Positions 1,216 to 25,879 of a stretch of DNA of 56,540 bases are shown here, piece after piece. How positions within the stretch are numbered: the stretch's first letter is position 1; every line of letters starts with the position of its first letter. Made by a program: the position numbers and the translations under genes. A model generated the notes under the pieces. It made no database searches. It was not told the DNA's origin and saw nothing but the letters and a program-made list of their open reading frames with translations. The stretch is from Candidatus Zixiibacteriota bacterium (GTDB taxonomy: Bacteria > Zixibacteria > MSB-5A5 > GN15 > FEB-12): NCBI GenBank assembly GCA_041742355.1, contig JBGSIV010000215.1:1-56540 (forward strand), given 5' to 3'.

Positions 1216-1600
1216 GCCGCACGACCGCGCATCGCATCGGGTAGACGCCAGGCCCCGCAGGCGGTGCTTCGAGTGCTATCGGTCGTTCGGCTGCATGGCA
1301 TTTCTCAGAGTCAGTCCTCTTCTCACCACTACCGGTGGGCCACACAATTTCACAGGCAGAGCCGGAGACATTGTGGGCGCGGGCAGGCGCGCCCGGCCGA
1401 GGCGCAAGGCGCCGGCCTTATCATGGACGGCCGCCGTATTTTTTTGCCGTCGGGCCAATTCAGGCTGGCGTAAGAGATCAAATTAGTCGATATTTGTGTC
1501 TTCACAACTTTTTGGCGCAACCGGATTACACATCGGGCAGTACACCACCGTAACAAATGTCTGAAAGACAAGGGAGCGAGTGTTGCTGGAACGCAGGTAT

Positions 1601-4414
1601 ATGCATTCATCGGCCGGACCGGGTCTGTTCCCGGGCGGGGCGCTGGTGGCGAATTACCGGATAATCCGCAAGGTTGGATCGGGGGGAATGGGGGAGGTGT
1701 ACCTGGCCGACGATCTCCGGCTCAAGCGGCCGGTGGCGCTCAAATTTCTCAACCGGGAGTTCAGCCGTGACGATCGGCAGCGCCGGCGATTCCTGAGCGA
1801 GGCGGCTTTGGCCGGCCGGCTTGACCATCCGAACATTGTCGTCGTGTACGACGCGGGGGAGGACGGGGAGCGCCTCTACTACGCGATGCAGTATGTGGAT
1901 GGCCGCACGCTGCGGGAGATAATCGACACCGAGGTGATTGACTACGAACGGGCGGTCAGCTATGCCGTACAGATCTGCTCGGGGCTGGCCAAGGCGCACG
2001 AAGCGAACATCATCCACCGGGATCTGAAGCCCGGGAATATCCTGCTCAATTCCGACGGGCTGTTGAAGATTCTCGATTTCGGACTGGCCCGTCTTGAGGT
2101 GGACCCGGCCGGGACACTTTCGACGGGAATCGTTGGGACGCCAAATTATATGTCGCCGGAGCAGGCTGAAGGAATGCCGGTGGATCACCGGACGGACCAG
2201 TTTTCATTCGGCACGATTTTTTTCGAGTTGCTGACCGGGGTGAACCCGTTCGCGCGGGGGCATATCCCGGCGACGGTGCACGCGATAATTCACGATCCGG
2301 CGCCCCCGCTCGCGGCCTATCGCCCCGATATCCCGCCCGACTGCCAGCAGATTGTCGACCGGGTACTGGCCAAACGTCCGGAACACCGGTATGCGTCGGC
2401 GGTGACGCTGCTGCAGGATCTGTCGCTGCTGTTGACAAAGAGGTCGCCGGTCCGTCGGGATGCCGCCCGGAGCGCGGTACGTACGGATCTGCAGGGTTTG
2501 GCGGTGCTGCTCTTGAAGAACCTCGGCGACAGCACCGATGATCACCTGAGCTACGGCATCACGGAGGATCTCATTGTCGATTTGAGCCGGGTCGGGGCAC
2601 AGCAGGTTGTGCCGTTGCGGCGGGTGATGAAATTTGCCGAGGGGACGATCGATCCCCGGGATATCGCGACACAGCTCGGGGTGGGGCTGGTGCTGGACGG
2701 GTCCATTCAGCGGCTGGAGGGCCGGATCCGGGTAGCGCTGCACTTGTACGATGCGGCGCAGGACAAGTCGGTGTGGGCCGAGCGCTGGGAGGAGAGCTGC
2801 GACAACCTGCCGCAGGTGAAGCGGGAGCTGGTGGAGGCGGTGGCGCGGCAGCTGGGGGTAACGAGCGACGTGCGGCAACAGGCCGGGATCAACGAGCTCG
2901 CGGCCCGTGACTCGGAGGCCTATGAAATGTACCTCCGGGGGAACTACCTGTTCGAGAAGAAGAAGTCGCGCGAGGATGTGGAAGCGGCAATGGGGCTGTT
3001 CGAGAAGGCGCTCGAGCGGGAGCCGTCGCTCCTGGCGGCCCGGGCCGGAATCGCGCGGGTGTTGACGTTTCGGACGGAGTACGATCGGGCGGCAACCGTG
3101 CTCCAGGAGGCGCTGGCCGACAGTAAACGCCGGTCGCAGCGCGATGATCAGGCGCGGCTGTACTCGCTCCTGGGAAAAGTGGAGAGCCTTCGGGGAAACT
3201 ACGTCGAGGCGCGCGACTGCCACTGGCGGGCTATCGACATCTGCCGCGACATCGATTCTCCGACCGATGAAATCGCGGCCCGGTCAGGTTTGCTGTCGAC
3301 GATCCGCATGCATGGTCTGTTCGAAGGGGCGGATGACCAGTTCGACCGGATCATGCAGCTGTGCCAGCGAGCCGGGCGGCGGGAGTTGTCGCTCGATGCC
3401 TTGTCGATGATGGGGTGGATCAACCTCGACCGCGGGCGGGAGCGCCAGGCACGGGAAATGTTCGGAGCGGGGCTGACGATCGCTCGGGAGATCGGGGACA
3501 CGACGCGCGAGGCGGTCATGCTCAACTCGATCGCGGCGTCGTATATCGGCAAGACGGGAGAGGCGAATTCGCGTACGGAGTTGGAGTACTACGAGCGGGC
3601 GCGGTCGTTGTGGCAGAAGATGGGGGACAAGCGGGCGCAGGCGGGGGCCTCGCACAATATCGGCCTCGTGCACCTGAAATCGGGGCGGTTTTCGGAGGCA
3701 TTGCGGCATTTCGAGTCCTCGGCGGAAGCGATGAAGGCGCAGGGGGAACGGGCGTACTACGCGCTGTTTGTGGCGAACATCGCAGAGGGGCTCGCGGCCG
3801 TCGGCGAGTACGCGAAAGCGGCGGAGCGGGCGATCGAAGCGCGCGACCTTGCGCAGGAAATCAATCACCCGGCGTACGTGGCCCAGGCGGAGACCAGCCT
3901 CGCCAATGCCTATGCGCTGATGGGCCAGACCGAGCCGGCGATCGAGATCCTCGACCGCATTGCGACGCTTTCCGAGGAGAAGGGGTTTGCCTGGCAACTG
4001 GTGAAGGCGTGCATGCACCGGGGCGAACTGGAGTTCGAGCGGGGGGACTTCAATTTGGCCGAGGAAATGTTCGCGCGGGGGTTGCGGAGCGCCGAAGGGA
4101 GCGGCTACGCCCTGTTCACGATCCGGATTGAATGCTACCAGGCGGCGCTGAGTGTGGCGCGGGGGCACTACCACGACGGCATCGTGGCGCTGTCACTGAT
4201 GGCCGATCGCACCGACAGCCCGCCGATGGACATCACCCGCCGGCGGCTGCTGGGGTTCTCGATGGCGCGATTCAGCCGGAGCGAGGAAGATCGCAACGGG
4301 GGCATTGAGGTGCTCCGGGCCGCGCTGCGCGACGCGGAGCGCATGGGTTACCGTCAGGAGTGCGATCTGATCGATCGCGCGCTAGAGCATCTCGAGCAAA
4401 CATCGTCGGAATAA
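1601..4414 (+). CDS. Hanks-type Ser/Thr protein kinase with TolB-N-like domain and TPR repeats
   Basis: Motifs GSGGMG, VALK, HRDLKPGN, DFG, YMSPE; then AVLLLKNL...GITEDLIVDLS and a long helical TPR-like C-terminus. Confidence 0.93.
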   Translation: MHSSAGPGLFPGGALVANYRIIRKVGSGGMGEVYLADDLRLKRPVALKFLNREFSRDDRQRRRFLSEAALAGRLDHPNIVVVYDAGEDGERLYYAMQYVDGRTLREIIDTEVIDYERAVSYAVQICSGLAKAHEANIIHRDLKPGNILLNSDGLLKILDFGLARLEVDPAGTLSTGIVGTPNYMSPEQAEGMPVDHRTDQFSFGTIFFELLTGVNPFARGHIPATVHAIIHDPAPPLAAYRPDIPPDCQQIVDRVLAKRPEHRYASAVTLLQDLSLLLTKRSPVRRDAARSAVRTDLQGLAVLLLKNLGDSTDDHLSYGITEDLIVDLSRVGAQQVVPLRRVMKFAEGTIDPRDIATQLGVGLVLDGSIQRLEGRIRVALHLYDAAQDKSVWAERWEESCDNLPQVKRELVEAVARQLGVTSDVRQQAGINELAARDSEAYEMYLRGNYLFEKKKSREDVEAAMGLFEKALEREPSLLAARAGIARVLTFRTEYDRAATVLQEALADSKRRSQRDDQARLYSLLGKVESLRGNYVEARDCHWRAIDICRDIDSPTDEIAARSGLLSTIRMHGLFEGADDQFDRIMQLCQRAGRRELSLDALSMMGWINLDRGRERQAREMFGAGLTIAREIGDTTREAVMLNSIAASYIGKTGEANSRTELEYYERARSLWQKMGDKRAQAGASHNIGLVHLKSGRFSEALRHFESSAEAMKAQGERAYYALFVANIAEGLAAVGEYAKAAERAIEARDLAQEINHPAYVAQAETSLANAYALMGQTEPAIEILDRIATLSEEKGFAWQLVKACMHRGELEFERGDFNLAEEMFARGLRSAEGSGYALFTIRIECYQAALSVARGHYHDGIVALSLMADRTDSPPMDITRRRLLGFSMARFSRSEEDRNGGIEVLRAALRDAERMGYRQECDLIDRALEHLEQTSSE

Positions 4415-4434: not shown

Positions 4435-4469
4435 AAAAAGGAACTGACGGCGACGTAATCGCCGTCAGT
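4435..4469 (-). terminator. Intrinsic terminator
   Basis: 11-bp stem ACTGACGGCGA/TCGCCGTCAGT with 5-nt loop, followed by TCCTTTTT on the minus strand only. Confidence 0.8.
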
Positions 4470-4550
4470 CTGCGTCACCTCAGATCGGTCGACCTGGGTC
4501 AGGGGGACTACGCTGTCCCTCTGTCTCTTCCCCCTGTTCTTGTGATGTCT
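4435..4550 (-). ncRNA. Putative sigma54-dependent small RNA (about 115 nt)
   Basis: Lies between a -24/-12 motif and a minus-strand intrinsic terminator. Contains hairpins CAGGGGGA/UCCCCCUG (4500-4536) and CAGGUC/GAUCUG (4481-4496). No credible ORF. Confidence 0.55.
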
Positions 4551-4561
4551 ACTAATCGGAT

Positions 4562-4712
4562 ATCAACTGGCGTGCCGGCGAGTGCGGCACTCAATAAATC
4601 GTTGAAAGATGTTGCGGGCAATGAGGATGCGTCGTGGTTGCGGTTCTTCGACGGGTTGCGCAGCGCGGATATGACCTCAGGGCGGTAGCGCGGCGGGGGT
4701 CAGAATGACCTC
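4562..4712 (-). promoter_or_regulatory. Sigma54 promoter with IHF-like site and upstream activator sequences
   Basis: Minus strand CCGGCACGCCAGTTGAT (GG at 4576-4575, 10-nt spacer, GA instead of GC at -12). IHF-like TTTCAACGATTTA at 4607-4595. Palindrome GGTCA-N3-TGACC at 4698-4710 and a second ATGACCTC at 4671-4678. Confidence 0.62.
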
Positions 4713-4727
4713 GCGGTCTCTCGGCGC

Positions 4728-6113
4728 TTAGTCGCGATAGGCGGTCGGATCGATCTGGTGCCCCTGCATCTTGCGGCGAAGGTTGGCGCGATCCATGCCA
4801 AGTCGTCGGGCGGCTTCGGCGATATTGTACTCGGCCACGGCCAGGGTTTCGATGATCAGGCGGCGCTCGAATTCATGAACCCGCTCGGCGAGGGATGCGG
4901 TCTGTTCGGCGGCATCGGATGGCTCGCAGCGCAGGGCGGCGCGGATCTGTTCGTGGGTAATCACATCGGATTCGGCCAGGGCAAGAACAGCCTCGAGGGT
5001 ATGCTGCAACTGGCGAACGTTGCCGGGCCAGTCGTGGGCGAGGAGGAGGGACAGGGCCTCGGGTTCGAGCACTTTGGGAGGGCAGCCGCGTTCGACCGTG
5101 AAGCGGTCGATGAAGCGCCGGACAAGCAGGGGAATGTCGTCGCGGCGATTCCGCAACGGGGGCATGGTGATCGTAACCCCGCAGAGGCGGTAGTAGAGAT
5201 CTTCGCGGAACTTGCCTTCGTCGCGTAGTTTTTCGAGGTCGCGGTGCGTGGCGCAGAGAACGCGGACCTCGGTTCGGGCAGTACTGCTGGATCCGACCGG
5301 CTGGAACTCGCCGGTTTCGAGAATGCGCAGGAGTTTGGCTTGAGTGGTGATGTCGAGGTCGCCGACTTCATCGAGAAAGACCGTGCCGCCGGAGGCATAG
5401 CTGAAGAGGCCCTCGCGATCGGTGACGGCGCCGGTGAACGCGCCTCTGACATGGCCGAAGAGCTCGGACTCGACGAGATCCGGCGCCTTGTGGTTGCAGT
5501 TGAGGATGCCGAACGTACGCTCCCGGCGAACGGAGCCGAAGTGGAGCGCGCGGGCGACAAGCTCCTTGCCGGTGCCGGTCTCGCCGAGAATCATAACCCG
5601 GCTGTCGGACCGGAGGAGTTTGCGGATGGTGAGGTAGATGTCGAGCATCGGTTCGGAGCGGCCGATGAGCCCGAAATTGGCTTCGGCGAAGTCAGCCAGG
5701 GCTTTGCGATCAGTGCGGAAACGATAGGCCTCGACCGCATTGCGCACCGAGCGCGTCAGGCGAGAGATGGCGTCCCCCTTCTGGATGTAGTCGAAAGGTT
5801 TCTCGGTTTCGTCGAGTTTATCTTCGTCGTAGTCGCCCGGGTATCCGGTGTGGAAGATCACAGGGAGATCGGGCAGCCGCTCGCGGATCCGCCTCGCCGC
5901 GGTGATGCCGTCGATATCGGCCATCTTGATATCCATGACCACCGTCGCAATGTCGGGGTGCTGCCGGGCGAGGTCGACCGCCTCAGCGCCGCAGGTGGCC
6001 ACGATGACGTCGTAGTCGTCGCTGAGCAGTTCGGCCAGCGCGTCGAGGACGAAGCGGTCGTCGTCGACGACGAGAATCTTGTCCTTTGCGCCAGAGAGAG
6101 CAGGGGTAGGCAT
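4728..6113 (-). CDS. NtrC-family sigma54-dependent response regulator (REC-AAA+-Fis HTH)
   Basis: ILVVDDD, MDIKM, Walker A GETGTGKE, ESELFGHVRGAFTGA, FLDEV, WPGNVRQL, C-terminal HTH. Has its own ATG at 6113. Confidence 0.93.
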   Translation of the reverse strand: MPTPALSGAKDKILVVDDDRFVLDALAELLSDDYDVIVATCGAEAVDLARQHPDIATVVMDIKMADIDGITAARRIRERLPDLPVIFHTGYPGDYDEDKLDETEKPFDYIQKGDAISRLTRSVRNAVEAYRFRTDRKALADFAEANFGLIGRSEPMLDIYLTIRKLLRSDSRVMILGETGTGKELVARALHFGSVRRERTFGILNCNHKAPDLVESELFGHVRGAFTGAVTDREGLFSYASGGTVFLDEVGDLDITTQAKLLRILETGEFQPVGSSSTARTEVRVLCATHRDLEKLRDEGKFREDLYYRLCGVTITMPPLRNRRDDIPLLVRRFIDRFTVERGCPPKVLEPEALSLLLAHDWPGNVRQLQHTLEAVLALAESDVITHEQIRAALRCEPSDAAEQTASLAERVHEFERRLIIETLAVAEYNIAEAARRLGMDRANLRRKMQGHQIDPTAYRD

Positions 6114-6120
6114 AGGTAAG

Positions 6121-8354
6121 TCAGTCTCCGGTTCCGGGGTTGGCGCTTCGCAGTGACAGGAGGAAGCAGCAGCCGCGGGGGCGGCTTCCTCGATCGTCAC
6201 GGTTCCATTGTACATATCGACCAGACGCCGGACGGTGGCCAGTCCGAGGCCGGTGCCGGTGTCGGGCTTGGTCGTGTAGAAAGCATCGAAGACGCGGCCG
6301 CGATGCTCGGGGGGAATGCCGGGGCCGTTGTCGGCGAGCTTGAGCAGGACTGCGCCGTCGGCAATCGACCAACGGATGTCTATGGCCGCATCGGGCCGGC
6401 CGGCGAGAGCGTCAAGGCTGTTGCGCAAGAGGTTGGTCAGGATCAGCCCAAGGTGGATGCGTCCGAAGACGACGGCGGTATCTGCGGGGCCGTCGGTGGT
6501 GACGTTGATGCCACGTTCACAGAAAGGAATGGAGAGATCCTTGACGGCGGAGGCGAGCGTTTCCGCGAGATTACAGACTTCGGGGTTGTACTCGGACTCG
6601 AGTTTGGTGTACCGCGAGATGAGGGTGGTCAGATCGATAGCGCGGGTGACGGCGCGGTTGAGGTCGTGCACGCGGGCGGGGATTTCGGCAGCGGCGACGG
6701 TCTGCGCGGGGTCCGCTTTGCCGAGGCGATTGAGAGCAAAGCGGGCGGGGAAGAGGGCGTTGCGGATTTCATGCGCGAACGCGCCGGCGATATCCTTGGC
6801 CTGTTTGTATTTCTCCTGTTCGACGATGACGGCCTGGGCCTGTTTCAGCGCTTCGTGCGCTTCAGCCAGCTCGGTGTTCTTGGCCTTCAGGCGTTGTCCG
6901 AAGACGAGGCTCAGGAGCAATCCCACGCCGAGCGCAAACATCCCGGCCAGGACATAGAACTGATGGCGCCGGTAGAAGATCGAGAGGTAGTCCCAGAAGG
7001 CGCGGGGGGAGAGTTGGACGATCCACTGCGCGCCATTTTCGCCAATGACGGCAAGGGCGGTTACTTCCCCCGCCGGACCTCTCGCCATGACCGCGACGGC
7101 CTGGGCGTCGGGGAGGAGGGCGAGGCGGTTCAGTCGGGCGTCGTAGAGAGCGGCACCATCGTCGTTGTCGATGGCGAAGGCGTCGTTCTTCCCGTCAAAG
7201 TGCGGGACCACGGTTACGTCTCCTGACATCACCGCTTTGAACCGGGCGACCGGTTTGAGATCCTGGGTCAGCACGAGTACGCCGTTGTCACGGAGATTGG
7301 CGTACAGCTCGTTTCGGCCGTCGGCATTATAGTCCCCCAACCACATGCCGTCGCCATTCGTTGCGGAGTCCATGTGCGCCAGGGCCGTCGTGTTGCCCCA
7401 GCCGTCGACGCGCTCGATAATCGTTCCTTTCCATTCCCCCGGCACTGTGTCTGGCGAGGAGTGGTACATCACGAAATACGAGTTCAGGGAATCGCCGGGA
7501 AGCACGCTCACGTAATGGGGGTAGTCGGTAATCTGACGGGCGGCGGCAATCCTGCCGGTGCGGTCGACGCGGATGAAGTATCCGTGAGCATCGGAAAAGA
7601 GGGTGTCGGTCGCCCCGTGGCCGGTTGCCCCGGAGCCGAAGATCACACCTGGGTTGAGGGAGTCGCGGCAATCGAATATATCCACGAAGCAGGGGGAGGC
7701 AATTTGCACCTGCCATTCGATGGAAAACGGATCGGGGTGGACGCAGAAGAGCATCCGCGGGGCGAGATCGCGCAAAGGATTCAAGTAGAAGAAGATCTCG
7801 GCGTGGCCGTCGAAGTCATAGTCCGAGGTCAATACGTGGTGGAAGAGGCCTTTCCAGCGACCGTCGCGCGTGCGATCGGTGCCGGTAGCGGCAAAAAGGG
7901 TGTCGACGGGGCCCCTGGGGAAGTGGGCTTTCATCAGCCACGCGGTATCGAGCCCGAACCCGGCCAGGTACACCATGAGCGAATCCCCCTGAGGCAGACC
8001 GGAGGCGCCCGAGAGGTGCAGGTCGATCGGCCGCTCGTAAATGATTGTGCCGGTGTTCGGGTACCCTGTCCAGCACAGATGGGCGGGGAGGTCTTCGGAC
8101 TCCGGGTAGTTGTAGGCTTTGAGCAGTGATCCCTTGGGCTGATCCGGTCTAATCTCCCGAACCACATGCAGGGACTTGTCGACTACGCCGGTGGGATTGT
8201 TCACGGGAGCAAAGATGGACTGAACGGTGGTGCTGTAGGGCAGGTAGGCGGTGTCGGCATCGCTGTCGAGAGCGACGGTCGGCACGTCGGCGTTAACAGA
8301 CGCACAGAGAAGAAGGCAGAGACAAACGGCGATGGGTGCGGAGATGACTGACAA
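6121..8354 (-). CDS. Membrane sensor histidine kinase with large extracytoplasmic domain; apparent 1-nt frameshift near the 3' end (6177-6181)
   Basis: Signal peptide, FG-GAP-like motifs, TM helix, H-box FAHEIRNAL, N-box NLLRNSLDA, DNGPGI, FYTTK, GTGLGL. The canonical end PRGCCFLLSL...* lies in another frame ending at 6121. Promoter TTGACT-17-TATCTT overlaps the TTG at 8411, favouring a start at 8354. Confidence 0.85.
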
Positions 8355-8484: not shown

Positions 8485-10512
8485 TCAGCGGGTACCGGAG
8501 ACCTCTTGCCTGATCTCTTCGGGGAGCGCAAGCAGTTCGGCGGTCTGGAGAAAGTAGTGCAGGCGGGTCCGGTGATGATCGAGGAGGGTGGGGGCGGTGG
8601 CGGTGATATCGCCGTCAGGTTGATAGAGGCGATCGGTGGCCATCAGGACGGTACGCTGGTCGAGAAGCTCCATGAGGTAGGCATCGGGATTGAGGTAGCC
8701 GATGGCCTGAGAGTGGTGGAAGATGGCGAATCCGGAGTCGTCGGCAGGGACTTTCAGGATGTCGCGCCCCCAGCTCTCGTGAATGTAGTCGCCGCCGAGA
8801 AGGCCCATCAGGGTGGGGAGCAGGTCGCATTGGCCGGCGTAGGTGGTGATGATCCGGCCGGAATCGCCGAGGAGCCGGGGGGCATAGATAAGCAGGGGGA
8901 TGTGCGTGTTGGCCGGGTCGAGCGGGTAGCGCGCGATATCCCAGAGGGCGTGGTCGCCGGTGAAGACGAAAATGGTGCTGTCGAAAACGGGGAGGGAGTC
9001 GAACTGCGCCATGAAGCGGCCCAGTGCCCAATCGGCGTAAACCTGCGCATTGTAGACTCTGGATGTGCGGTCGTCGCTGAAAAACCGGCGGACGGATGAA
9101 TCAGGCAGATCGAACGGAGTGTGGTTGGACAGGGTGAGGATGCTCAGTTGGAAGGGGCGGGGGAGGCTGTCGGTGAGACCGACGGCTTCACGAAACAGGA
9201 GGTGGTCGGGGATGCCCCACTTGGAGAACGACTCGGCGCCGGGAAAGTCTTCTTCGCCGAGGATGAGGCGGTAATTTTTGGTCTGGAGGAATCCGGCCAT
9301 GTTGTCGAACACGAGGTCGCCGCCGTAAATGAAGGCGCTGAAGTAGCCTCGGCCGTGGAGCAGTTCGCTCAGAGTGATGAAGGGGTGGTCGGCGCCATAG
9401 CGTTTGAGAATGGCGCGGCCGGGCATGGAGGGAAACGAGCAGATCGTGCCGGCGATGCCGTAGGCAGTGCGGGTGCCGGTCGCATAGAAGTTGCGGAAGA
9501 GGAGGCCGAGGCGGGCGAGCGAGTCGAAGTGCGGGGTGAGGCCGAGGTCGGATCCGACACAGCCGGTGAACCGGCCCGAGAAGCTCTCCATGAGGACCAG
9601 GACGATGTTGGGTTGGAATCCCCACGAAGCGGACGGCTGGCGGGCGAGGCGTTTGAGGGAGCTGTCGGGTTCGAGCCAGGTCTCGTGCGGCAGGCCGATC
9701 ATAGCCCGGGTGGTATCGAGGGCAACGCCGAAGTCGACAAAAGGCCAGCGCTCTTCGGGGGGACGGTAAATCAGGCGGGGGTCGTGGTCGCGTTCGGTGA
9801 GGGTCCGGCCGAGGGTGTAGGTGCCATTGAGGGCGAGCTGATTGACGAAGTGGTCGCGGTTGAAGTAGGCGACCCCCCAATCGATGGGGGCAAGATCGAG
9901 CCGCCCCCGCATGCCCAGGACGCACCCGGCTACGAGCAGGAGAGTGTAGATCCCGGTGTTGAGCCAGCTCCGGCGAAGGGGGATCGCGCGCAGTCGGCGG
10001 CGCAGGAGAATCAGGCAGAGGAGAAAGCCCGTCATAACGGCGGCCCACAGGGCGATATAGGTCCAGAAATTCGGGTCGAAGAGGACGAGGTTCCAGGCCG
10101 TGCGACCTTCGGACAGGTAGTCCAGCACGTTGAAGTTGAGGTGGCTGTCGTACTCGTCGAAAAAGCGGATGTCGGCGAGCAGCAGGAGGAGGATGACGCC
10201 GAACACGAACGTGAGATAGCCGAGCACGAACGGGCCGGGGGAACGCATGCGGCGGTCGAGCCAGGGGAGGATCAAGGCGAGAGGGGCAAGAGTCGCGGCG
10301 ATCACAATGGTATCGAAACGGGCGCCGATGTAGAAGGCGGTGAGGAGATCGGGCAGAGGAATGTCGGCGACGCGAGCGCGGAAGTGCAGGAGGAACAGCA
10401 GGCGGGCGACGGCAAAAAGCCCCAGGCCGGTCAGCCATGCGCCAAACAGGAAAAGGACCGGGCGCGGCGGGAACAGGTGGGCGAAGCCGGAGGTGGGGTG
10501 GTCGTCGTGCAT
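8485..10512 (-). CDS. LTA synthase / MdoB-like phosphoglycerol transferase (sulfatase superfamily)
   Basis: N-terminal TM helices; PNIVLVLMESFS, catalytic Thr in GTRTAYG, TLSNHTPF, FTGDH, DLLPT. Confidence 0.88.
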   Translation of the reverse strand: MHDDHPTSGFAHLFPPRPVLFLFGAWLTGLGLFAVARLLFLLHFRARVADIPLPDLLTAFYIGARFDTIVIAATLAPLALILPWLDRRMRSPGPFVLGYLTFVFGVILLLLLADIRFFDEYDSHLNFNVLDYLSEGRTAWNLVLFDPNFWTYIALWAAVMTGFLLCLILLRRRLRAIPLRRSWLNTGIYTLLLVAGCVLGMRGRLDLAPIDWGVAYFNRDHFVNQLALNGTYTLGRTLTERDHDPRLIYRPPEERWPFVDFGVALDTTRAMIGLPHETWLEPDSSLKRLARQPSASWGFQPNIVLVLMESFSGRFTGCVGSDLGLTPHFDSLARLGLLFRNFYATGTRTAYGIAGTICSFPSMPGRAILKRYGADHPFITLSELLHGRGYFSAFIYGGDLVFDNMAGFLQTKNYRLILGEEDFPGAESFSKWGIPDHLLFREAVGLTDSLPRPFQLSILTLSNHTPFDLPDSSVRRFFSDDRTSRVYNAQVYADWALGRFMAQFDSLPVFDSTIFVFTGDHALWDIARYPLDPANTHIPLLIYAPRLLGDSGRIITTYAGQCDLLPTLMGLLGGDYIHESWGRDILKVPADDSGFAIFHHSQAIGYLNPDAYLMELLDQRTVLMATDRLYQPDGDITATAPTLLDHHRTRLHYFLQTAELLALPEEIRQEVSGTR

Positions 10513-23242: not shown

Positions 23243-23992
23243 ATGTCCGGTCATTCAAAATGGGCAACCATCAAACGTAAAAAAGGTAAGTTAGACGCCG
23301 AGCGCGGCAAGGTTTTCACCCGTCACATCAAGGAAATAGTCACCGCAGCCCGTGAAGGGGGCGGTGACCCGAACGGGAACCCGCGACTGCGTACGGCGAT
23401 ACAGGCGGCCAAGGGCAGCAATATGCCGGCCGACAACATCAAGCGGGCGATTCTCAAAGGGACGGGGCAGCTCCCGGGAGTCGTGTTCGAATCGATCATC
23501 TACGAAGGCTATGGGCCGGCGGGAGTCGCGGTCTACCTTGAGGTGATGACGGACAATCGGAATCGGACGGTGGGAGAGATCCGGCACGCGCTGATGAAGT
23601 ACGGCGGGAATCTCGGGGAAAACGGCTGTGTGAGCTGGATGTTCCACAAGAAGGGCGTGATCGAGGTCGAGAAGGCTGTGGCCGATGAGGATGCCCTGAT
23701 GGAACTGGCGCTGGAGGCGGGCGCGGAGGATGTCAAGACCGAAGGAGATGTGTTCGAGGTCGTGACGCCGCCGGAGGCGGTTGAGATGGTGCGCGAGGCG
23801 CTCGAGAAGAAGGGGATCGCGATGGCCTCGGTGGAGGTGACGATGATTCCCGAGACGACGGTCAAGCTCGAGAAGGAGAACGAGGCATCGTCGATGCTGA
23901 AGCTTTACGAAATTCTCGAGGAGCATGACGATATCCAGAAGGTGTACTCGAACTTCGATATCGACGAGAAGATGATGGAGAAGCTGGCGTAG
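23243..23992 (+). CDS. yebC: YebC/PmpR family protein
   Basis: [46 protein letters not shown]. Confidence 0.96.
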
Positions 23993-24069
23993 CGAGCGAT
24001 CTCTGTCGCGATGAATATGGAAGCCCCGCCGGGTGAGAGATCCGGCGGGGCTTTTGATTTGCGGGGGAT
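23948..24069 (+). repeat. Direct repeat copy 1 (yebC 3' end plus terminator), attL-like
   Basis: 47 bp (23948-23994) and 55 bp (24015-24069) are identical to 25762-25808 and 25825-25879. Confidence 0.9.
24021..24055 (+). terminator. yebC intrinsic terminator (duplicated at 25831-25865)
   Basis: AAGCCCCGCCGG...CCGGCGGGGCTTTT. Confidence 0.85.
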
Positions 24070-25710: not shown

Positions 25711-25743
25711 ACGGGAGCCATAGTCTCGTGCAAAGGGATACTC

Positions 25744-25879
25744 GATGTTCAGAATGTCTATTCGAACTTCGATATCGACGAGAAGATGATGGAGAAGCTG
25801 GCGTAGCGGTCTCTGTCAGGTCAGATATGGAAGCCCCGCCGGGTGAGAGATCCGGCGGGGCTTTTGATTTGCGGGGGAT
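25744..25879 (+). repeat. Direct repeat copy 2 (displaced yebC 3' end plus terminator), attR-like
   Basis: Encodes [20 protein letters not shown] versus [20 protein letters not shown] in yebC. Confidence 0.9.

Follow-up and report, generated by a model that had tools for sequence, protein, structure and literature searches.

In the CbrA/CbrB-CrcZ and CsrB/RsmZ systems, a two-component system drives the expression of an RNA that repeats an mRNA site; the gene for CrcZ is found behind that of its activator and depends on sigma-54, and the CrcZ and CsrB/RsmZ decoys imitate sites for Hfq or CsrA in 5′ leaders. Here we analyze a locus of comparable layout in a 56,540-nt stretch of DNA from Candidatus Zixiibacteriota bacterium (assembly GCA_041742355.1, contig JBGSIV010000215.1, positions 1 to 56,540), hereafter the window, in which genes for a sensor histidine kinase and an NtrC-type activator are followed on the minus strand by a sigma-54 promoter and a predicted non-coding RNA (ncRNA) of ~115 nt, the window RNA. 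The layout as such is already known from Pxr and from Desulfovibrio; the new part is that a sigma-54 RNA is linked to a 3′-end module of secreted-protein genes. A search for publications on small RNAs (sRNAs), RNA motifs or sigma-54 in Zixibacteria/Zixiibacteriota, with most subscription journals and all supplements outside its scope, found none that was relevant, and the comparisons below draw on portions of PMC5568312, PMC5684412, PMC11928866, PMC4641369, and PMC11697453.

The Pxr system of Myxococcus comprises a kinase, a sigma-54 response regulator, and an sRNA with three predicted stem-loops that is expressed from a sigma-54 promoter in a host lacking Hfq (PMC5568312, PMC5684412). The window RNA is likewise located behind a kinase and an NtrC-type regulator and has its own sigma-54 promoter; however, it does not match the Pxr family in Rfam (RF01812; the best score in the same genome is 15 bits, elsewhere than at this locus, against a gathering threshold of 80). 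The window RNA is G-rich, whereas a C-rich stretch is implied for Pxr by the probe given in PMC5568312; the terminal stem-loop varies most in Pxr but is the best conserved part here; and copies behind secreted-protein genes, found here, go unmentioned for Pxr in the available portions of both papers. For Desulfovibrio vulgaris, the two-component enhancer-binding proteins DVU0653 and DVU0679 are listed with an ncRNA just downstream as their target (PMC4641369). By this description their layout is the same; the accessible text of that paper describes no 3′-end module. The FopS sRNAs of Bacteroides are a multicopy, Hfq-free family with a single-stranded 5′ part and a terminator, an RRM-domain partner (RbpB), and repression by pairing near start codons; their structure is said to be deposited in Rfam (PMC11697453). 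The RNAs studied here are also multicopy and Hfq-free, and RRM genes are present; however, the RNA of eight loci had no Rfam match at E ≤ 1 (release 15, which possibly does not include FopS), and they occur in 1–6 copies per genome, under sigma-54 control and on mRNA ends. CrcZ and CsrB differ in that no Hfq was found here, GGA motifs show no enrichment, and it is mRNA 3′ ends that carry the shared element. By the tests run, the RNA thus appears to be a member of none of the Pxr, FopS, CrcZ, and CsrB families.

Conserved promoter and predicted RNA downstream of the activator gene

The survey of activator homologs covers 96 loci, of which 58 have a −24/−12 site, 34 have none, and four are cut short; related loci are not independent, and therefore locus counts are descriptive and not statistics. 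Individual loci are labeled with L-numbers, and the genome that contains the window (G000) is divided into contigs labeled with C-numbers. The promoter is mostly located 118–131 nt past the activator stop codon. Exact GGT-N7-ACC sites at about −130 or −97 are present in 38 of the 58 promoter loci (both sites in 24) and in none of the 34 controls without a promoter; these sites cluster at −127 to −134, where they often overlap the activator stop codon, and at −93 to −101. An IHF-like core, CAA-N4-TTR, was identified in 21 of the 58 promoters, where 2.4 would be expected, and its usual position is −33 to −38. From the tandem GGT-N7-ACC arrangement, a binding site is predicted for an activator family of uncultured bacteria, likely Zixiibacteriota.

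In the window, the palindrome GGTCA-TTC-TGACC (enhancer site 1; 4698–4710), located at −134 from the promoter GG, is the predicted binding site of the adjacent activator. Enhancer site 2 (4664–4676, minus strand; half-site GAGGTCAT at 4678–4671) is at −100 and has an intact left half and a degenerate right half; it follows site 1 by 34 nt, within the 33–35 nt spacing of the relatives, and its profile score is below zero (−1.8 bits). The IHF-like site TTTCAACGATTTA (4595–4607, minus strand) at −28 has one mismatch to the IHF consensus, and the −24/−12 promoter GGCACG-N4-TTGA (4563–4576, minus strand), read against the general sigma-54 consensus, predicts a start near 4551. Single motifs are common in this genome, where palindromes of this kind number 26 (52 hits over both strands) and the promoter is matched exactly 25 times; their combination at the locus ranks first among 778 promoter candidates. 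The profiles behind both the site 2 score and this ranking were derived from relatives only.

The content downstream of the 58 promoters was classified with R1, one of two RNA models of the 3′ module (R1 and R2) built in this analysis. An R1-matched RNA free of open reading frames (ORFs) is driven by 37 promoters, an unmatched RNA by 10, an ORF by nine, and a gene remnant by one, the last promoter being that of the window. R1 matches at activator promoters include 34 at E ≤ 0.002, 16 of which are training sequences, and the RNAs with a called end are between 52 and 416 nt long. A conserved small ORF was looked for by eye: in a few relatives a start codon follows the G-tract, most have none, and no such ORF is shared. 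Rfam yielded only a tRNA in the window and nothing for 12 loci, and at E ≤ 1 a single chance match off the RNA was obtained for 8 loci. The analysis defines an RNA family that Rfam does not contain. We consider the kinase-activator-sigma54-ncRNA cassette, with an RNA outside Rfam, as well supported by comparative sequence analysis, and a discrete sigma-54 RNA is very probably made at this position in the family. In this part, the initial annotation of the locus, which had proposed such a cassette with an sRNA of no recognized family and had called for an Rfam scan, is borne out by the conservation across relatives; the palindrome, half-site, IHF-like site, promoter, hairpins, and terminator that it listed were all recovered at the coordinates it gave, and the layout whose conservation it left to be checked is kept in relatives, with the promoter at 58 of 96 activator loci and the enhancer at 38 of these 58.

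A 3′-end module shared with secreted-protein genes

In the module, a GAGGGG tract precedes two hairpins, first a variable one and then one of the terminator type, whose outer pairs are conserved and whose loop reads GUGCUC. In a plain MAFFT alignment of the terminator (n = 17), 93.6% of the cells are paired and 7 of 11 pairs are doubly changed, compared with 35–47% paired cells in slid controls, and thus the covarying stems that the initial annotation had suggested looking for do occur in relatives. A larger alignment fitted to the model, which leans to that model, agrees and contains many G-U pairs, as expected of RNA. Across 77 model-selected copies, the UGCU core of the loop is 92–95% conserved, while the stems vary. 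At E ≤ 0.001, R1 finds the module in 76 of 151 order genomes; R2 matches 69 of 151 genomes phylum-wide, namely 61 of 83 in the order (own genome excluded) and 8 of 67 outside it, and module copies number one to six per genome.

The same module follows genes. Six of the nine ORFs driven by the activator-linked promoters encode secreted-type proteins with a C-terminal domain (CTD) resembling those of FlgD and of the type IX secretion system (assigned by Pfam for one of them). At L010 and L018 the promoter is followed by a CTD gene with the module past its stop codon, whereas at L126 only the last CTD codons remain between promoter and module. We further classified by eye 40 high-scoring dispersed copies outside the activator loci and the training set. 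These comprise 14 copies behind CTD genes, six behind dockerin-like ends, four at orphan promoters with the enhancer, two at further activator orthologs, seven at other enhancer-binding-protein loci, one at a likely outer-membrane protein gene, and six others. The CTD- and dockerin-associated copies (20 of 40) are located within 240 nt behind the gene; for scale, CTD genes account for 12 of 342 terminator-bearing genes in the window's own genome. The four orphan promoters, which share the same enhancer, drive the module alone. A set of 16 further copies includes three plain terminators, among them both same-genus ones. The module is thus present at both types of position, and the anatomy of the locus, its conservation, and the covarying stems are likewise observed. 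Whatever the mechanism, the gene-bearing, remnant, and RNA-only states under one promoter form a natural series for the origin of sRNAs from 3′ untranslated regions (UTRs).

At L132 and L134, minimal 52-nt versions with swapped motifs are found downstream of the activator, with GUGCUC at the 5′ end and GAGGGGG within the terminator hairpin. In the window's own genome, a G-tract, a hairpin, and a UGCUC-loop terminator follow signal-peptide genes on C263 (3609–3679, minus strand) and C283 (near 5500, minus strand) as module copies that remain there. Short hairpins with CAGAGGGG stand right behind the stop codons of CTD genes on C41, C272, and C131. A mobile or phage-borne repeat was considered and rejected: the model fits none of 21 viral and 2 of 10 metagenome pattern matches, copy number is low, and the stems covary.

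Predicted structure and motifs of the window RNA

The predicted window RNA occupies 4435–4551 (minus strand). For a 123-nt stretch here, the folding energy is −50.2 kcal/mol (z = −3.6), and none of 200 shuffled sequences folds as well. Hairpin 1 (4500–4536, minus strand) pairs a G-tract with its complement and carries a 21-nt purine loop that displays AGACAGAG (4526–4519) and GGGACAGC (4519–4512). It is followed by hairpin 2 (4477–4499, minus strand), predicted from the fold, and by the terminator (4435–4470, minus strand), a 13-bp hairpin at 4470–4442 with CC and five T after it. The purine tract, hairpin, and terminator hairpin thus occur in module order; GAGGG is present and GAGGGG is absent, and the terminator lacks the GUGCUC loop of the family, including its UGCU core; the model alignment has a 5-nt deletion at the loop motif. 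The motif AGACAGAG was found in 7 of 39 dereplicated transcripts, the window included (0.2 expected), and GGGAYAGC in 5 of 39 (0.4 expected), both motifs having been chosen after inspection. The best local match to the window RNA among 58 loci is L158 (z = 5.9), and both window purine motifs also occur upstream of the module at L255, behind a dockerin-ended gene. A DNA search of the own genome detected no second copy.

Possible function and candidate partners

The occurrence of the module in two forms, attached to a class of mRNAs and as a predicted free RNA under its own induction, follows the logic of a decoy and leads us to favor, tentatively, a role in which the RNA titrates a factor that binds the 3′ ends of secreted-protein mRNAs. 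According to this proposal, the kinase and the activator, the latter binding GGT-N7-ACC, would switch on the adjacent sigma-54 promoter via the two upstream sites, and the promoter would produce the ~115-nt ncRNA. An RNA-binding protein or nuclease would recognize the module on mRNA ends, RRM proteins being the leading candidates by their presence alone, and a burst of free module RNA would then titrate this factor and change the stability or output of module-bearing mRNAs. More doubtful is the general scheme in which the mRNAs of a secreted-protein subset are tagged by a shared 3′-end RNA with a dedicated protein reader and sigma-54 two-component systems tune all of these mRNAs together by firing the tag in ORF-free form as a decoy. 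The bacterial decoy RNAs described so far copy mRNA leader sites; a 3′-end copy, if true, would suggest regulon-wide 3′-end control in a lineage without Hfq, and a 3′-UTR regulon with its own sponge would be seen from the full gene via the eroded remnant to the free RNA.

A number of observations weigh against this decoy proposal. The promoter is missing from 34 of the 96 activator homologs, and 10 of the 58 promoters drive RNAs unmatched by the model. Most CTD genes of the window's own genome lack the module (the G-tract is found in 7 of 37), this genome shows only two or three UGCUC-loop modules, and recombination could carry the module along with the ends of CTD genes. The window RNA scores 17 bits with R1 and 21 bits with R2. 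With R2 it is on a level with two of the window's ordinary terminators, at 22 and 20 bits, and the genome-wide model search does not recover it. Since it scores like ordinary terminators, its membership rests on position and on the two motifs noted after inspection, and we regard it as a putative diverged, positional member of the module family and not as a proven one. Finally, among multicopy families in a related phylum FopS comes closest, and it acts by base pairing.

FopS accordingly serves as a precedent for Hfq-free multicopy sRNAs (PMC11697453) in an alternative that we consider possible but somewhat unlikely, in which the modules are sibling base-pairing sRNAs: the module itself would be the regulator, released from sigma-54 promoters or from mRNA 3′ ends cut by RNase E/G, and would pair via its purine and GUGCUC loops. 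Short conserved single-stranded motifs within a variable frame, 1–6 copies per genome, and the presence of RNase E/G are consistent with this alternative. However, conservation reaches into stem sequence, which pairing does not need, and crude target tests found no conserved complementary site. The loop complement precedes a Shine-Dalgarno (SD) sequence and ATG in one of five genomes (control, 2), no enrichment near starts was seen in the own genome, and a duplex scan gave no standout target; the gene calls used in these scans were crude. The G-rich tract pairs with the anti-SD sequence; being similar to a ribosome-binding site itself, it could not mask one, which we count in favor of the decoy role.

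The L031 leader, with complements of both motifs, is a candidate partner at this locus. At L189 (360–1190, genome G005), an 800-nt leader with a sigma-70-like promoter before a secreted-protein gene holds complements of both module motifs along with its own GAGGGGG. A ribosome-shield role of the kind known as STAB-SD was considered in view of the anti-SD pairing and set aside, as RNase J was not found above its cut-off.

As to protein partners, the initial annotation had suggested a CsrA- or Hfq-type sponge as one possibility beside base pairing, and our data do not support such a sponge. Hfq was detected neither in the own genome nor in any of the 61 genomes of the order that were searched, the controls being matched in 5 of 14. 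CsrA is nearly universal in the order (152 of 160 genomes) and is also encoded by the own genome, and AGGGA is present in the window RNA, as would suit a sponge of the CsrB/RsmZ type; however, across 33 transcripts GGA (138 observed, 166 expected) and ANGGA (29 observed, 37 expected) fall below expectation, two transcripts have no GGA at all, the two GGA of the window RNA are both paired in the lowest-energy fold, and the enriched motif is GAGGGG instead. A CsrA sponge is thus very improbable. The own genome contains four RRM genes. In three of them (C294, C108, and C80) the leaders share a hairpin, GACGCGCA-N-G(T/A)GCGC, ~70–90 nt before the start, which is a possible autoregulatory site, and the RRM gene on C108 also carries GTGCTCAC right after its stop codon.

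Kinase, activator, and state of the window copy

The activator (4728–6113, minus strand; 461 aa) has a receiver domain, a sigma54 AAA+ domain with GAFTGA, and a Fis-type helix-turn-helix, as identified by Pfam. It has matches at E ≤ 1e-138 in 79 of 160 genomes of the order; L036, which carries the same gene pair (54% identity), nests among same-family loci in the activator tree, consistent with Zixiibacteriota as the likely host phylum, and two loci labeled Ignavibacteria are 49–52% identical. The kinase coding region (6121–8354, minus strand), with an inferred TTG start at 8354, encodes a signal-peptide-like start, a predicted all-beta sensor domain, one long predicted membrane helix, a His box, and an HATPase domain (Pfam HATPase_c), and the histidine of the HEIRN motif is invariant in an alignment of 24 kinases. 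The structure model (pLDDT 83) has Foldseek matches to kinases, BamB, and designed Cake propellers; the sensor is thus predicted to resemble a beta-propeller and may read an envelope cue.

A one-base frame shift in a C5 run (6177–6181, minus strand) makes the kinase run in frame into the activator, so that both form a single ORF of 1227 aa (8411–4728), while the usual kinase end with its own stop codon (6123–6121) is in another frame of the window. This fusion, which the initial annotation had not noted, is found in none of the other loci with a kinase match among the 96, and the only fused form among 10 database protein matches is the window's own protein. An assembly slip as the cause is unsupported: in run X1, which may stem from the source sample, an assembled contig is identical base for base with no gaps, and the contigs of three further runs do not reach the site. 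With the loop motif lost, the second enhancer weak, and the kinase fused by frameshift, the window copy is likely weakened or specialized, and in this lineage the system may be in decay.

The same three features are compatible with an RNA that is a relic 3′ end, in which the secreted-protein gene of the promoter was lost, leaving a tail and terminator that, in this genome at least, do nothing in trans. The existence of ORF-bearing (L010, L018) and remnant (L126) states agrees with such a history, as do two other same-genus genomes, which yielded only the paralog at 46–47% identity. In addition, this position is occupied by a Kelch-like CTD gene in G002, a genome of the same genus; the tail of this gene shares GAGACAG and G-tracts with the window RNA, the local alignment reaching only z = 2.2. 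However, the ORF-free state with enhancer, IHF site, and promoter is kept at 47 other loci in both main activator clades (of a tree with weak deep support and an arbitrary root, compatible with either gene loss or gene insertion), and nothing but the module is driven by orphan promoters that share the enhancer. As such signals would not persist once the gene was lost, we consider the relic origin improbable and retain the decoy role as the tentative explanation.

Neighboring genes and other observations

In the own genome, a second activator-like gene ends near position 1320 of C217 (plus strand); ~270–400 nt further on there is a sigma-54 site with a short RNA that has no ORF and whose terminator loop reads GAGGG. 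Directly upstream of the kinase, the window encodes a membrane sulfatase-family protein (8485–10512, minus strand), which we take to be LTA-synthase-like, and a Ser/Thr kinase with TPR repeats (1580–4414, plus strand) converges on the terminator of the RNA. Farther away, a gene 3′ end with its terminator, presumably that of a yebC-like gene, is present as a 142-bp, 90% identical duplicate at 23929–24069 and 25743–25879 (plus strand); the two copies flank a small inserted stretch in a manner resembling an integration scar.

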